From assembly GCA_965217895.1 (NCBI GenBank), contig CBDCJV010000002.1, forward strand, positions 1,760,001 through 1,824,000: 64,000 bases of DNA, in the 5' to 3' direction. A program made the translations under genes and the position numbers. Source of the stretch: Waterburya sp. Lineage in GTDB: Bacteria > Cyanobacteriota > Cyanobacteriia > Cyanobacteriales > Xenococcaceae. The stretch's first letter is position 1. Each line of letters opens with the position of its first letter. Positions 30,730 to 39,892 of the stretch are shown here, one piece after another. The notes under the pieces are model-generated. The model saw nothing but the letters and a program-made list of their open reading frames with translations, was not told the DNA's origin and did not search any database.

Positions 30730-31530
30730 TTGAGGAGTAAAGATTTGAAGCTTCTAAAACTTGCTAATTGGCTATCTAAAGGGGATTTAGAGCGATATAA
30801 ACAACAAGCCCAGCAAGCCCAGCAAGCTCAACAAGAGCAATCAAAGCTGCAATACTTAGAGTCTGAGCTAAAAAGCCTCAGTGCAAAGCTTCAGCAAACT
30901 CAAAAACAATTAAGGCAAACTCAAGCTCAACTTCAGATCAACCAAGGTTTTCAAATTGAGTTAGGAGAAACTCAGCTAAGATTACAAAAAGTTGATGGCG
31001 AAGCAAAACTCTATAAAAAAGCGTTATTTGAACAACAGAAACAGTTTAACCTCACTCAGTCTCAATTGGAACATACACAGCAAGCCTTAGCTAAGTCCCA
31101 AAATTGGCTAGAGCTATTGAAAACACCGATTCAAATTGTTGAAATACAAAAAACTCTTCCCAAACAAAATTTTGATACCCTCTGGGGATTTGGAATTATT
31201 ACCCCCCAGCCTCAATCTCTGTCCATCGCTGGGGCAATATTAGTCAAAGGTTGGGTTTTGGGCAAAAAATCGATTGCCAAAACTCTTAGAGTCATTTATC
31301 AGACGGATATTTTATTAGAAACTCCCGTTAAGCATTCTCGTCCGACAGTGATGCAAAGGTATCCAGATATTCCTACAGCTAATAGCAGCGGGTTTGAATT
31401 TTCTATTTCTGTGGCAGGAATACCAGAATCGGCAAAATTCAAGCTGGAAGCTCTTTTGGAGGACGAAACTATTGTTTCTCTATGTGATTTTATTCTAAAA
31501 TCTGCACAAATTGAATTAAATGACACATAA
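30730..31530 (+). CDS. Hypothetical protein: Gln-rich coiled coil plus C-terminal beta-rich domain
   Basis: Long ORF with QAQ repeats; GWVLG..RP.V..YP...SGF pattern. Confidence 0.7.
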   Translation: MRSKDLKLLKLANWLSKGDLERYKQQAQQAQQAQQEQSKLQYLESELKSLSAKLQQTQKQLRQTQAQLQINQGFQIELGETQLRLQKVDGEAKLYKKALFEQQKQFNLTQSQLEHTQQALAKSQNWLELLKTPIQIVEIQKTLPKQNFDTLWGFGIITPQPQSLSIAGAILVKGWVLGKKSIAKTLRVIYQTDILLETPVKHSRPTVMQRYPDIPTANSSGFEFSISVAGIPESAKFKLEALLEDETIVSLCDFILKSAQIELNDT

Positions 31531-33618: not shown

Positions 33619-34761
33619 ATGAATATTTTGTTTGTAATCACCAGGGCTGATGTTATTAGAGGAGTGCAAGTTCATGTAAAAGGTTTAGCCGTTGCTTTAC
33701 AACAAGACCAACACAAAGTTTTAGTTCTTACAGGAAAAAAAGGGGCATATAACAAAGATCTTAGAGAAGCTAGAATCGAGTCAATTGCCTATAAATTCTT
33801 ACAGCGGAAAATTAATCCGTTTAGAGATGGCAAAAGTTTACGTTACATTCTGTACATAATTGATTTGTTTAAGCCAGACTTAATCGCTGCCCATTCAAGC
33901 AAAGCTGGTATCTTAGGTCGTATAGCAGGAAAAATGAGCAAAGTTCCTTGTATTTTTACGGCTCATGGTTGGTCATTTACTCCTGGCATTGGTGAGCCTA
34001 ATCGTACTATTTACCGATGGGTAGAAAAATTAATTGTTCCTTTAGCGACTAAAGTGATTTGCGTTTCTGAGTTTGATCGTCAAATTGGCTTAGAAGCGGG
34101 GCTTAATCCCCAAAAGTTGTTAACCGTTCATAACGGCATGAAAGATATTGTTTCCAAGTTGAGGTCTAACCCTGGTCAAGTTGGTTCAGTTAACATTGCC
34201 AGAGACGACGACGACGAATTAGATTCGTCATCCCTGGTGGTTAAAATAGCCATGGTTGCTCGTTTTGATCGACAAAAAGACCAATTAATCTTAATTAAAG
34301 CTTGTCATGGTCTTAATGTAGAGCTAATTTTAGTGGGTGACGGTGTTAATTTAGCTAAAGCTCGCCAACAAGTAGAGCAGTTAAAAATGCAAGATCGGGT
34401 CAAGTTTTTAGGCTTTCGTAAAGATATAGCCGAAATTTTGGCACGAGTACAAATTTTGACCTTAATTTCTAATTGGGAAGGGTTGCCCTGTACGATCATT
34501 GAGGCAATGCGCGCTGGTTTACCCGTCATAGCCTCCGATGTAGTTGGTGTCAAAGAAATTGTCATTGAAAATGAAACAGGCTATTTGATTTCTGACAACG
34601 ACCCTGACATTCTGCGTCAGAAGTTATCCTATTTAATCGATAATAGCCAGATAAGAACTCGTATGGGAAAATTAGCCCGTCAAAGATATGAGTCTCAACT
34701 AACGTTTAAACATATGTATGATAAGACCTTGGCAATATATCAAGATGCCGTAGCTCAATAG
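33619..34761 (+). CDS. Glycosyltransferase family 4
   Basis: HSSKAG, FTAHGW, VARF..QKD, EGLP..IIEAM. Confidence 0.9.
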   Translation: MNILFVITRADVIRGVQVHVKGLAVALQQDQHKVLVLTGKKGAYNKDLREARIESIAYKFLQRKINPFRDGKSLRYILYIIDLFKPDLIAAHSSKAGILGRIAGKMSKVPCIFTAHGWSFTPGIGEPNRTIYRWVEKLIVPLATKVICVSEFDRQIGLEAGLNPQKLLTVHNGMKDIVSKLRSNPGQVGSVNIARDDDDELDSSSLVVKIAMVARFDRQKDQLILIKACHGLNVELILVGDGVNLAKARQQVEQLKMQDRVKFLGFRKDIAEILARVQILTLISNWEGLPCTIIEAMRAGLPVIASDVVGVKEIVIENETGYLISDNDPDILRQKLSYLIDNSQIRTRMGKLARQRYESQLTFKHMYDKTLAIYQDAVAQ

Positions 34762-34794: not shown

Positions 34795-35925
34795 GTGAAA
34801 CAGCCAATCCTATTATCTACGCCTCATATTGGTGAACTTGAGCTAAAGTTTGTCCAGGAAGCTTTTGATACTAATTGGGTAGCACCCGTCGGTTCAAATA
34901 TAGATGCTTTTGAACAAGAATTTTCCCAAGCAGTTGGCTCACAGTCTGCTGCTGCCTTATCTTCTGGAACAGCAGCTTTGCATTTAGCCCTCAAGTTAGT
35001 CGGAGTTGAAGCTGGTGACGAGGTATTTTGTTCGACGTTCACTTTTGTGGCTAGTGCCAGTCCAATTATCTATTTAGGAGCTAAACCAGTATTCATTGAC
35101 AGCGATCGCCTTTCTTGGAATATGGATCCTAATTTGCTAGAAACCGCCTTAGCCAAAAGAGACAAACTGGGAAAATTGCCCAAGGCAGTAGTGGTAGTGC
35201 ATCTTTATGGTCAGAGTGCCGACATTGAGCCAATCTTGGCAATATGCGATCGCTATGATATTCCCTTAGTTGAAGATGCAGCAGAAGCCTTGGGAGCAAC
35301 TTATAAAAATACCTCTCCTGGCACTTGGGGTAAAGCGGGAATTTTCTCTTTCAATGGTAATAAAATTATTACCACTTCTGGAGGTGGGATGTTAGTTTCT
35401 GACGATGCAGACTTAATTCAAAAAGCCAAATTTTTAGCAACCCAGGCAAGAGATCCTCAACCTCACTATGAACATACCGAGATCGGTTTTAATTATCGAT
35501 TAAGCAACATTTCGGCAGGTATTGGTAGAGGACAATTAGCAGTATTAAAAGATAGAGTTGCTGCTCGTAGACGAAATTTTGCAGTTTATCAACAGAATTT
35601 AGCAGATTTGCCAGGAATTAAATTTATGCCCGAAGCAAATTTTGGTACAAGTATACGCTGGCTTAGTTGTTTAACAATTGATCCTGAAATTTCAGGCACG
35701 GATCGAGAACAAATACGTCTACAATTGCTAGACAAACAGATAGAAACTAGACCAGTTTGGAAGCCAATGCACCTCCAGCCGATATTTGCAGATTGTGAAT
35801 GTATTAATAATGGAGTAGCCGAAGAACTATTTCAACAAGGTTTGTGCTTACCTTCTGGCTCTAACCTAACTGAGTCAGACCTTGAACGAGTAATTACTGA
35901 AGTTAAAAGTATGTTTGCCTCTTGA
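34795..35925 (+). CDS. DegT/DnrJ/EryC1/StrS sugar aminotransferase (EpsN/PglE-like)
   Basis: SSGTAALHLAL, VHLYGQ, EDAAEALG, SFNGNKIITTSGGG. Confidence 0.92.
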   Translation: MKQPILLSTPHIGELELKFVQEAFDTNWVAPVGSNIDAFEQEFSQAVGSQSAAALSSGTAALHLALKLVGVEAGDEVFCSTFTFVASASPIIYLGAKPVFIDSDRLSWNMDPNLLETALAKRDKLGKLPKAVVVVHLYGQSADIEPILAICDRYDIPLVEDAAEALGATYKNTSPGTWGKAGIFSFNGNKIITTSGGGMLVSDDADLIQKAKFLATQARDPQPHYEHTEIGFNYRLSNISAGIGRGQLAVLKDRVAARRRNFAVYQQNLADLPGIKFMPEANFGTSIRWLSCLTIDPEISGTDREQIRLQLLDKQIETRPVWKPMHLQPIFADCECINNGVAEELFQQGLCLPSGSNLTESDLERVITEVKSMFAS

Positions 35926-36034
35926 TGAAATCTTGCTTATTATTCCGCTATTATAATTTGAGTAGTTTTACGTATGTATTTTTCTTTAAATATTTTAAAT
36001 ATCACTATTTAGATATAACTATTAAATATTAAGC

Positions 36035-38644
36035 ATGAACCCCCCACAAACGTCTTTAGATAATCAACAGTATTGGCAGATGATAAAAAGGCGTTGGCTG
36101 CCTGGGTCAATTGTTTTTTTAATCATATTAACTTTGGGTATTGTTGCGACTACTCTAAAGAAAAACTTTTATGAGGCTGAAGCAAGGCTTAAATTTAAAG
36201 GTAACACCGTTAGCTCTTCTTTGACAGAGGTTAGTAAAGCTTTAGAGGGCTTCTCACCAATTGCAGAGAAAGGAAATCCTATTGACACAGAAGCAGAGGT
36301 TTTACGTTCGGTTCCCTTGATTAGCAAAACTATTAACGATCCTAAGCTTCAGTTGAAAGATGCTGATGGCAAAAAGCTCAAAGTTGAAGATTTTCTAGAA
36401 AAATTAAAAGTTTCCTCGATAACTGCTACAGATATTCTCAAGATTTCCTATGCTAGTCAGAATCCAGAGCAAGCTGCCTTAGTGGTTAACACTTTGGTCA
36501 AAAATTATTTAGGTAATAATTTAATAGTTAATAAAGCTGAAGCAGTTTCAGCTAGAGAGTTTTTGCAAGAACAACTACCGAAGGCAGAAGATTCTCTACG
36601 CAAAACTGAAACAAAAATACGGGAATTAAAAGAATCAAATGGATTTGTCTCTCCTGATGAAAATACTAGCTCCTTAATTCAGGGAATGCAGCAGCTACAG
36701 GCAGAAATAGCCCAAACTCGTGGAGAAATGGCTAATGCTGAATCTCAAGCTGACTATATTAAAAAAAAGCTGGGTTTGACCGCAGAACAGGCGGTGGCTC
36801 TAACTACAATTAGCCAATCTCCAGCAATTAAAGAGACGATATCTAAACTGCAAAATGCAGAATCCGCTCTGGCGATCGCCAGAGCGCGTTTTACAGATAA
36901 TAGTCCGAATGTAGTTGAACTACAACAGCAGGTAGATTCACTGTCAAAATTACTCAATCGACAAACCGCTTCTGTTGGCGGAGAGACAGCAAGAGATCTG
37001 GTAGAAAAGAATAAGACAGGTGTAATTCAAGAAGAACTTACCACCGAGCTAATTCAGCTCGAAGCTCGAAAATCTGGTCTGCAAAAGCAAATTGACAGCT
37101 TAAGCCAGGTTGAGGGCGATCGCCGTGCGAGAATCCAGAAAGTACCAGAGCTAGAGCAAAAGTTAAGTCAGCTTGAAAGACAGCAAACTTCGTATCAGTC
37201 AACCTACGATGTTTTGTGGAAACAGCTACAAACTATAAAAATTGCTGAAGTTCAAGATCCTGGAAACGTTAGGGTGATTTCTAATGCCGTTGTTCCCGAT
37301 CAGCCAGTCTCTTCTCGTGCAGTAGGCTTTTTAGCTGCTGGCTCTCTAGCCTTATTATCCGCAGCTGGAGTTATTTATCTTTTAGAAATTAGTGATAAAT
37401 CAATTAAAACCATTGACGAAGCCAAACAACTATATGGTTATACCTCTTTAGGGATAATTCCAGGCACAGACAGAATCAAACTATTGACTTTACCAGAATT
37501 AGAAGATCGAGATCCCTCCATTCCTAAATTAATAGTCCGAGACTATCCTTCTTTAGCACTCAGTGAGTCCTATCGGATGTTGCAGTCTAATATTAAGTCT
37601 CTAAAGACTGATAGAAAGGTAAAAACTATTGTCATTACAAGTTCTAGCGTGCAGGAAGGCAAATCAACAATAGCTGCCAACTTAGCAGCAGCAATGGCTC
37701 AAGTAGGCAATAGAGTTTTATTGGTTGATGCTAATTTACATAATCCTATTCAAGATCGTATTTGGAATACTTATAGCGACAATGGCTTAAGTAATGTAAT
37801 TACCGATCACTTAGATCCCAAAATGACTATTAATGAAGTAATGCCAAATTTAGACTTGCTTACTTCAGGAAGTTTAAATCCCTCTCCTGCAACTTTACTA
37901 GATTCTCAAAGAATGAGAATGTTGATCGATTACTGGTCAGAAAGCTATGACTTTGTAATTTTTGATACTCCTTCTTTAGATTTAACTGCCGATGCTCCAA
38001 TCATGGGTCGTATGGCTGACGGAGTGTTGTTAGTAGTTAGACCTGGTTTAGTAGAGCGATCGCAGGCAAAATTCACCAAAGAAATTTTAGAGCAATCAGG
38101 ACTCAATATGTTAGGAATTGTCTTTAATGGAGTTGAGCCTCAATTTGATTCACGCTTTTACTACTACAATGCTTTTGAAGAGCCGCCAGCTATACTGTCC
38201 CATAACAAACTTTCAAGCATTAGCCCGATAGAAAATGAAGAGCTTTGGGATACTATTTCTTCTATGGCAATAGAGTCCAAAAAAGATAGATTAGGTGCCA
38301 ACCTTGACGCAGATCAGCTGCTATTAGCACCATTGGATAAGCTAGAGTCAATGGTATTTCATTTACAGCAAGATCTAGCAGATTTAAGTAGAGTGGTCAA
38401 AGAACAAGAAGAAGAACTTTTATTGCAGCGTCAGAAAGTCAAAAAATTGCAACGACAAGCTAATGTCTCTCATGAAAATGAACTTTTCTATTCAGAAAAT
38501 CAATTAAATCAGGAGCAAGAACGAAAACGTATGCTGGATGAAACTCTTGTAGGACAAAGGAGAAACCTGGAAAAACGTCGAGAAATGCTTTTCCAGTATC
38601 AGCAAGTGCTAGAAAGCAGAAAAAATGCTAGTTTTCGAGTCTAG
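36035..38644 (+). CDS. wzc: Wzc-type polysaccharide co-polymerase/tyrosine autokinase with extra C-terminal coiled coil
   Basis: TM-coiled coil-TM, ESYRML, EGKST, DANL, FDTP, YYY cluster, then about 160 extra aa. Confidence 0.88.
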   Translation: MNPPQTSLDNQQYWQMIKRRWLPGSIVFLIILTLGIVATTLKKNFYEAEARLKFKGNTVSSSLTEVSKALEGFSPIAEKGNPIDTEAEVLRSVPLISKTINDPKLQLKDADGKKLKVEDFLEKLKVSSITATDILKISYASQNPEQAALVVNTLVKNYLGNNLIVNKAEAVSAREFLQEQLPKAEDSLRKTETKIRELKESNGFVSPDENTSSLIQGMQQLQAEIAQTRGEMANAESQADYIKKKLGLTAEQAVALTTISQSPAIKETISKLQNAESALAIARARFTDNSPNVVELQQQVDSLSKLLNRQTASVGGETARDLVEKNKTGVIQEELTTELIQLEARKSGLQKQIDSLSQVEGDRRARIQKVPELEQKLSQLERQQTSYQSTYDVLWKQLQTIKIAEVQDPGNVRVISNAVVPDQPVSSRAVGFLAAGSLALLSAAGVIYLLEISDKSIKTIDEAKQLYGYTSLGIIPGTDRIKLLTLPELEDRDPSIPKLIVRDYPSLALSESYRMLQSNIKSLKTDRKVKTIVITSSSVQEGKSTIAANLAAAMAQVGNRVLLVDANLHNPIQDRIWNTYSDNGLSNVITDHLDPKMTINEVMPNLDLLTSGSLNPSPATLLDSQRMRMLIDYWSESYDFVIFDTPSLDLTADAPIMGRMADGVLLVVRPGLVERSQAKFTKEILEQSGLNMLGIVFNGVEPQFDSRFYYYNAFEEPPAILSHNKLSSISPIENEELWDTISSMAIESKKDRLGANLDADQLLLAPLDKLESMVFHLQQDLADLSRVVKEQEEELLLQRQKVKKLQRQANVSHENELFYSENQLNQEQERKRMLDETLVGQRRNLEKRREMLFQYQQVLESRKNASFRV

Positions 38645-38668
38645 TTATTGATTTCTTTTAGCTTGGTG

Positions 38669-39892
38669 CTATAAATAAAACTCCGTTTTGGCGATCGCCA
38701 CAGCTTTTAATTCAAAGATTTTTTCAATTACGTCAGCCACAACTTTATCAGGGGTAGAAGCACCTGAAGTTATTCCTACGGTAATTTCCCCTTCTGGTAG
38801 CCAGTTTTCGGCTACGGTAATTTCTCGCTCTAAAGGCTTATGTTCTAAGCGATCGCGACTTAGAATACGCTCAACGCAGTCAATATGATAAGAGGGTATA
38901 TTATGCTCAACAGCAATTTCTTGTAGATGAGTAGTATTAGAAGAATTAAACCCCCCAATCACAATCATTAAAGACAAGTTTTCTTCAACCAAATCAAACA
39001 TGGCATCTTGCCTTTCTTGAGTCGCATCGCAGATAGTATTAAAGCTCATAAAATGCTGCGTTAACTCAGTTGGACCATACTTTTTCAGCATTGTTTGCTC
39101 TAAAAGCCTACCAATTTGCTCTGTTTCACTTTTGAGCATCGTAGTTTGATTAGCGATACCAACTCTAACCAAATCTCGGTTAGGATCGAAACCATCAGAA
39201 TAAGCGTTTTTAAACTTAGTTAAAAATTCATGGCGATCGCCGCCATGAAGAATATAGTTAGTCACATATTCAGCCTCTGCTAAATTTAAGACAACTAGAT
39301 AGCGATCGGCAAACGAACTTGTCGCCACAGTTTCCTCATGAGCATATTTGCCATGAATAATTGAAGTGTAGTCCCGTTTTTTATGCTTTTCTACCGAATT
39401 CCAAACTTTTGATACCCAAGGACAGGTAGTATCAACAATAGTGCAGCTTTTATCATTCAGTAGCTGCATCTCCGAAACACTTGCACCAAAAGCAGGTAGA
39501 ATAACCACGTCTGTTTGACCAACAACGCTAAAATCTTTTTCACCATCAACTAATTCAATAAAGTCAACGTTCATTTCTCTCAGACGTTGATTAACTGAAG
39601 GATTGTGAATAATCTCGTTGGTAATCCAAATTTTTTCGCTGGGGAAATGCTGGCGAGTTTCGTAAGCCATAGCCACGGCTCTTTCTACTCCCCAACAAAA
39701 GCCAAAAGATTCGGCTAGAAGAATAGTAACATCTCCTTTTTGTAGACGATAGTTGCGATCGCGAATGGTTTGAATTAAATCACTTTGATACTCCGTATTC
39801 ATTGTTCCAGCTACTTCTTCATCGTGTCCAAATCCTCGACGATGATAGTTTTGGGACTGTTGCAAAGAACGTTTAAAAGCTTTAGTATCCAT
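38669..39892 (-). CDS. ispH: 4-hydroxy-3-methylbut-2-enyl diphosphate reductase
   Basis: [39 protein letters not shown]. Confidence 0.97.

Follow-up and report, generated by a model that had tools for sequence, protein, structure and literature searches.

The window we analysed, the whole 64,000-nucleotide stretch of a Waterburya sp. genome, carries at 36035..38644 (+) a gene for an 869-amino acid Wzc-type polysaccharide co-polymerase (PCP-2a) joined to a module derived from HmpF, as assigned by Pfam, NCBIfam and PDB comparison. Two transmembrane helices predicted by hydropathy (aa 22–40, 36098..36154 (+), and aa 432–450, 37328..37384 (+)) flank a periplasmic domain with GNVR (E 4e-7) and Wzz (E 0.002) matches, and the topology of Wzc (PMC11986026) places the kinase domain and tail that follow helix 2 on the cytoplasmic side. 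The BY-kinase-type domain scores 164.5 bits against TIGR01007 (cut-off 108) and matches Wzc in the PDB at E 1e-40. It contains Walker A (aa 535–545, 37637..37669 (+)) with Lys543 intact, Walker A' (aa 562–571, 37718..37747 (+)), in which Asn567 aligns, against solved Wzc, with the catalytic Asp564 of the E. coli protein, and Walker B (aa 640–647, 37952..37975 (+)) with Asp644 intact and DTPS rather than DTPP. A short tyrosine cluster, YYY (aa 709–711, 38159..38167 (+)), is now internal and is followed by 158 residues (an earlier sequence-only reading had put this extension at about 160), which include the HmpF-derived module (aa 734–865, 38234..38629 (+)), predicted to be a hairpin with helices at about aa 767–811 and 814–864. 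In common with E. coli Wzc (PDB 7NHR, 9EXQ) and S. aureus CapAB, the protein has a periplasmic coiled-coil domain set between two membrane helices, a P-loop domain with Walker A and B, an apparent tyrosine cluster and sugar-gene neighbours, and it differs from these PCP-2a proteins in the shortness and internal position of the cluster, the Walker A' Asn, the DTPS Walker B and the 158-residue extension with its HmpF module.

Upstream on the same strand, and likely in one operon with the fused wzc, lies a GT4 glycosyltransferase (33619..34761 (+)), followed by a DegT/LegC-like sugar aminotransferase (34795..35925 (+)) which is a conserved upstream neighbour, present at 9 of the 18 fused loci inspected in the same family and also at locus L056 of a second family, f37. 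L036, L042 and L043 have similar sugar-gene clusters upstream, and so do L056 and L065 of f37, as far as ORF starts allow this to be judged by eye. We also note a 266-amino acid protein at 30730–31530 (+), which begins with a coiled coil, belongs to no family of Pfam or NCBIfam, and is found near the fused wzc in four loci of the same genus.

The resemblance of the tail to HmpF, which the sequence-only reading had proposed from two motifs that both occur in the translation as quoted, was borne out by profile comparison. Residues 734–865 match positions of about 306–438 of the 553 in NCBIfam NF038350 (taxis_HmpF) at E 1.3e-31 and about 110 bits, which is below the whole-protein cut-off of 200, as expected because only part of HmpF is present and its N-terminal domain is absent. 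This is not generic coiled-coil similarity, as the neighbouring coiled-coil ORF at 30730–31530 gave no match to the HmpF profile. Compared with HmpF itself (NF038350; N. punctiforme HmpF and Synechocystis Slr1301), the tail has the profile 307–438 segment, the predicted hairpin and the signature residues, whereas it lacks the N-terminal beta domain and long coiled coils and is membrane-anchored through Wzc. The fusion is also additional to HmpF, and the separate full-length hmpF which had been suggested as a check was found in this 99.9% complete genome (571 amino acids, 579.9 bits), adjoining cheY- and cheW-like genes; two pilT genes and a pilB-like ATPase gene are also present. The tail is 44% identical to this HmpF over 99 amino acids (tblastn E 6e-16), with the next genomic match at E 0.18.

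The junction between kinase domain and tail is spanned by one contig from each of two other studies (X3 record 20, 36870–38653, and X7 record 23, 35979–38800). These independent contigs, together with the 111 protein clusters with both domain types described below, show that the fused Wzc is no assembly artefact, and the Wzc–HmpF fusion is real. The genome (G000) has nine Wzc-type genes, and the eight paralogues of the fused gene have no tail. A single Wza-type export domain was found in the genome (C2:1912566), beside a Wzc paralogue other than the fused one. A search of the genome for hpsO gave no match at E 1e-30, and the search controls gave none anywhere either. One of the paralogues (C2:3120604–3122856) has lost both Walker A and the tyrosine cluster.

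The segment of HmpF found in the tail stands out within HmpF. Among 66 HmpF sequences, mean pairwise identity is 0.50 and 0.48 across the N-terminal 160 amino acids, 0.28 in the next coil, 0.49 at amino acids 323–432 and 0.24 after this, and by this measure HmpF has two conserved islands, of which the module is one. An AlphaFold2 model of HmpF (pLDDT 84, pTM 0.47) consists of a beta domain, long helices at 74–182 and 190–315, a hairpin at 334–378/381–429, and a helix at 447–570, and the tail modelled alone gives the same hairpin (pLDDT 86). The hairpin is thus predicted to be a discrete unit bounded by helix breaks within HmpF, and the equal lengths of helices 190–315 and 447–570 suggest that it may form the far tip of a folded rod. 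The module profile, searched against PDB sequences, reached E 0.005 at best, and Foldseek found no match to the module at E ≤ 0.001 and returned generic hairpins such as Vipp1/PspA; as these matches lie above E 0.001, an ESCRT-III reading of the hairpin is unsupported. The module has dN/dS values of 0.08–0.37 in four of seven pairs (dS was saturated in the other three), which is like the kinase domain, with the linker mostly freer, and across 113 fusions the EQE-E and TL-GQ--NL residues show little or no variation. These ratios place the tail under purifying selection.

A protein search with the tail returned 142 clusters, and among the 120 listed, 111 are Wzc-type fusions having both Wzc-type domains and PF28019, the Pfam family which marks HmpF-type matches and fused Wzc alike. 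Source names among the listed clusters include Pleurocapsa, Chondrocystis, Waterburya, Stanieria and Hyellaceae, from which we take the family to be pleurocapsalean. The survey of the architecture across cyanobacteria which the sequence-only reading had called for found a tail match besides HmpF, or in a frame unlike HmpF, in 49 of 61 genomes of this family (a count from the match table); 43 of these matches are in frames of 859–913 amino acids and six are partial, and they cover seven of nine genera, with one genus having two copies. All 18 loci that were inspected, from 16 other genomes of the family, are Wzc fusions. The genus with two copies (g33; G082 and G083, loci L041–L044) has two fused genes that have diverged from each other, the first within a sugar cluster and the second next to sbcD.

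A draw across the phylum (301 genomes, 117 with a match) gave no fusion-type frame outside the pleurocapsalean family, and weak matches in this draw (E about 1e-4) were treated as coiled-coil noise. In a draw across the class (401 genomes, 332 with a match, and up to ten candidates scored per genome), extra matches were found in at least 12 genomes of f37, a family of another order, and frames of 832–932 amino acids occur in 13 of 48 f37 genomes. Eight of the 11 f37 loci we inspected are Wzc fusions, and the other three are a kinase-less co-polymerase with the module, a rotamase and a small protein. One related cluster belongs to a Stenomitos sp. by its NCBI label. The f37 fusions overturn the view that the architecture is restricted to one family, and the fusion is conserved across two families of different orders.

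The fused gene was not found in 12 of the 61 genomes of the pleurocapsalean family, some of them near-complete, and these keep hmpF. Such absences might be expected if the tail were a neutral remnant, or a product of read-through or assembly error. In four of five tail-negative genomes we checked, however, the best Wzc is only 33–36% identical, and as no Wzc exceeds 36% identity it is the whole gene that is missing and not the tail alone (the fifth has a 706-amino acid relative at 38–46%). With dN/dS well below 1, a tail kept in seven genera, and independent contigs across the junction, we regard this explanation as refuted and its probability as next to nil. Both the similarity to HmpF and the occurrence of the fusion beyond a single unsupported assembly, on which the sequence-only reading had staked its proposal, were therefore found.

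The same reading called the protein a Wzc autokinase, and here the identification as Wzc holds while the autokinase activity is doubtful. With Asn567 aligned to Asp564 of E. coli Wzc, the second Asp of the Walker A' DxD is absent. The equivalent Asp79 of CapB is placed to deprotonate tyrosine (PMC2422856), and substitutions at this position lower the activity of Wzc (D564A) and abolish that of YwqD (D83A; PMC9800525, Table 2). Among 43 diverse fusions, 27 have Asn and 14 have Asp at this site, against Asp in 80 and Asn in two of 82 comparison Wzc proteins, one of these two being a contig-truncated member of the fused clade. The 113 close fusions have Asn in 78 cases and Asp in 33, and since Asp is kept in these 33, kinase loss is not fixed. 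The Walker A Lys is present in 112 and the Walker B Asp in all 113 of the close fusions, with Lys replaced by Thr in three f37 proteins (it should be noted that the comparison set was picked mostly by its Walker A pattern, which biases its own lysine count). Tyrosines in the cluster average 1.9 in the fusions and 3.5 in the comparison Wzc, and 39 of the 113 close fusions have none or one in the 30-residue cluster region; the fused Wzc of the window has three, in an internal position. As the catalytic Walker A' Asp is replaced by Asn, the kinase of the fused Wzc is likely impaired, and we read the conservation of the kinase domain as relaxed catalysis with the fold retained, the counts being descriptive as related proteins are not independent. 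Two other features were considered as fusion-specific changes and rejected, as the Arg-to-His change in Walker A' is also found in 21 of the 82 comparison proteins, and the altered ExxRxxR motif recurs as Q in 52 of them.

These changes would also be consistent with a role for the hairpin that has no link to pili, in which it is a generic self-association clamp between Wzc subunits and replaces the contact between tyrosine tail and active site which holds the ring together. D564 hydrogen-bonds the neighbouring subunit's tyrosine (PMC7485978), and the fusions differ from other Wzc both at this residue, through the high frequency of Asn, and in their shorter tyrosine cluster. A generic clamp would have no need, however, for the HmpF-specific residues which are kept across HmpF and all carriers.

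The module is not limited to Wzc. When 1.84 billion representatives were searched with the module profile, 245 matches came back, and the best 150 of these, classed by BLAST, are 88 HmpF, 22 Wzc fusions, three DevB-type adaptors and 37 others, many of which look like HmpF fragments. Pfam analysis of 17 proteins identified two HlyD/RND adaptors, an AcrB C-terminus, two TPR proteins, a rotamase, and a TPM protein with two modules. Nine of ten carriers we looked up are single-member clusters and could include chimeras, and single architectures need caution. The DevB fusion of G043 scores above the TIGR02971 cut-off and matches HmpF 331–465; this DevB-family ABC-exporter adaptor (L051:4582–6291 (−)) has the module at its N-terminus, adjoins devA, and is like P0201, P0239 and P0252. 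G702 has a second candidate frame, of 577 amino acids. Among the other carriers, G653 encodes a co-polymerase with the module after the second membrane helix and no kinase domain (L062:7404–9386 (+)), of which P0185 looks like a still more reduced form, and G577 has three module genes, including a parvulin-type rotamase (L057:7478–8983 (+)) and a 213-amino acid protein (L058:2776–3417 (−)). The module also occurs alone, as an ORF of about 90 amino acids in G046 (L052:7636–7908 (+)).

Many of the carriers are oligomeric, as Wzc, HlyD adaptors and AcrB are, and this would suit a clamp, as would a carrier (L062) that has the module without the kinase domain. A clamp leaves unexplained the repeated capture of one and the same segment, and we consider it unlikely. 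The soluble carriers (the rotamase, P0235 and P0241) are as compatible with a regulatory input as with a tag, and the hairpin could be the site on HmpF that receives input from the Hmp chemotaxis-like system, which on Wzc would switch export with light or proton motive force and leave the machine where it is. The localisation of HmpF depends on the Hmp system (PMC11407516), and the usual phosphorylation switch looks degraded in the fusions. Against this, the passages on HmpF name no Hmp component that binds this segment, the bare hairpin has no obvious sensory chemistry, and we think an input site improbable, more so than the clamp.

We undertook a phylogenetic analysis of the Wzc bodies with their tails removed, using 51 rows chosen for spread from 125 sequences. 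In the IQ-TREE phylogeny, 16 fusions of the two families group together (SH-aLRT 97), nested among Nostocales and Moorena proteins that have no fusion, with four further fusions elsewhere, and although FastTree splits the fused Wzc of the two families which IQ-TREE joins, a single origin for these is likely. A single clade for all 20 fused Wzc was rejected (p-AU 2e-55, and 0.026 for the 19 left without the most distant). A module tree of 68 rows, though of only 110 columns, put the AcrB module as sister to the HmpF of family f2 (100/98) and the rotamase module among f37 HmpF (100/97), placements which fit separate captures from resident hmpF genes; the Wzc tail does not group with its own family's HmpF. 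By its distribution, over unrelated Wzc lineages (a single origin being rejected) as well as DevB/HlyD adaptors, AcrB, TPR proteins and a rotamase, the module is a mobile domain which has been captured repeatedly.

Our main reading, to which we give a probability of about 0.45, is that the hairpin is a docking tag which keeps the polysaccharide exporter at the base of type IV pili, where HmpF marks the site. Wzc assembles as an octamer whose tail is cytoplasmic (PMC11986026), and the fused protein would then present as many as eight hairpins inside the cell, which could bind HmpF itself, or a partner normally bound by the hairpin of HmpF. HmpF homologues interact with themselves and each other in two-hybrid assays and co-purify with PilB (PMC7002697), and HmpF, which marks the leading pole, binds both Hfq and PilT (PMC11407516, PMC12288463). 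One of the nine Wzc paralogues might in this way deliver an amino-sugar-containing polymer where pili act, in the service of gliding or attachment by baeocytes, and position might partly replace the phosphorylation cycle as a means of control. The baeocytes of most pleurocapsaleans are motile (PMC8472315) and pilus genes are present in Waterburya (PMC8580901). The sequence-only reading had likewise proposed a tether of EPS export to the HmpF-pilus pole, and the capture of one module by several envelope exporters fits such a docking tag only indirectly. Of 12 membrane carriers, 11 have the module on the side predicted to be cytoplasmic, but any fragment of a cytoplasmic protein would be expected there, which weakens topology as support for the tag. 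Also counting against it are the TPM, TPR, rotamase and unassigned carriers with no known tie to pili, the absence of the fused gene from family genomes which keep hmpF, the modest identity of the tail to the resident HmpF together with its grouping apart from its own family's HmpF, and the relocation of HmpF within minutes, which an envelope-spanning complex is unlikely to match.

The same eight hairpins per ring could give avidity to a membrane-bound decoy, through which Wzc would sequester HmpF or its partner and stop motility as the settled baeocyte starts its sheath. Sheath growth ends baeocyte motility, which suits a decoy, but the second family and the DevB, RND and rotamase carriers would be unexplained, and we hold a decoy to be very unlikely. 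The docking tag can be extended to a broader and rather unlikely proposal, in which cyanobacteria have used HmpF's central hairpin as a movable address for polarity, grafting it many times onto envelope exporters (Wzc, DevB/RND adaptors and AcrB) and thereby making secretion follow the pilus pole as light steers it; in the Pleurocapsales the hairpin would have taken over from tyrosine phosphorylation in controlling one Wzc.

The sequence-only reading knew of no description of this architecture, and our literature searches on HmpF, on HmpF with Wzc, and on cyanobacterial Wzc localisation (subscription papers and supplements being outside their scope) likewise found no fusion or mobile HmpF module described; the fusion is unmentioned in the matched passages of a phylum-wide survey (PMC4594306). 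The architecture is nevertheless already visible to automatic annotation via PF28019. HmpF has been described as lacking characterised domains (PMC11407516), and the natural fusions may single out one 130-amino acid unit of it as functionally portable, a defined fragment for work on HmpF binding and localisation. Pilus activity and polysaccharide secretion in cyanobacteria are co-regulated (PMC9239167, PMC7690835), through a coupling described as not fully defined (PMC9239167). DnaK1/DnaJ3 connect pilus activity to hormogonium polysaccharide (PMC9239167) and so likewise couple pilus motors to polysaccharide output downstream of HmpF, but by an indirect chaperone route and in a filamentous species, whereas here a piece of HmpF is covalently part of an export protein. 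The fusion would be a direct candidate link from the pilus pole to Wzx/Wzy export, and it draws attention to a subfamily of Wzc which may dispense with the canonical kinase cycle. Finally, we note that the Waterburya genome also encodes a stand-alone 148-amino acid protein directly after valS (L003:1501–1947 (+), about 4718058–4718501 of G000:C2), which matches the N-terminal part of HmpF only (profile 1–150, E 7e-21), and the other HmpF island thus also exists alone.
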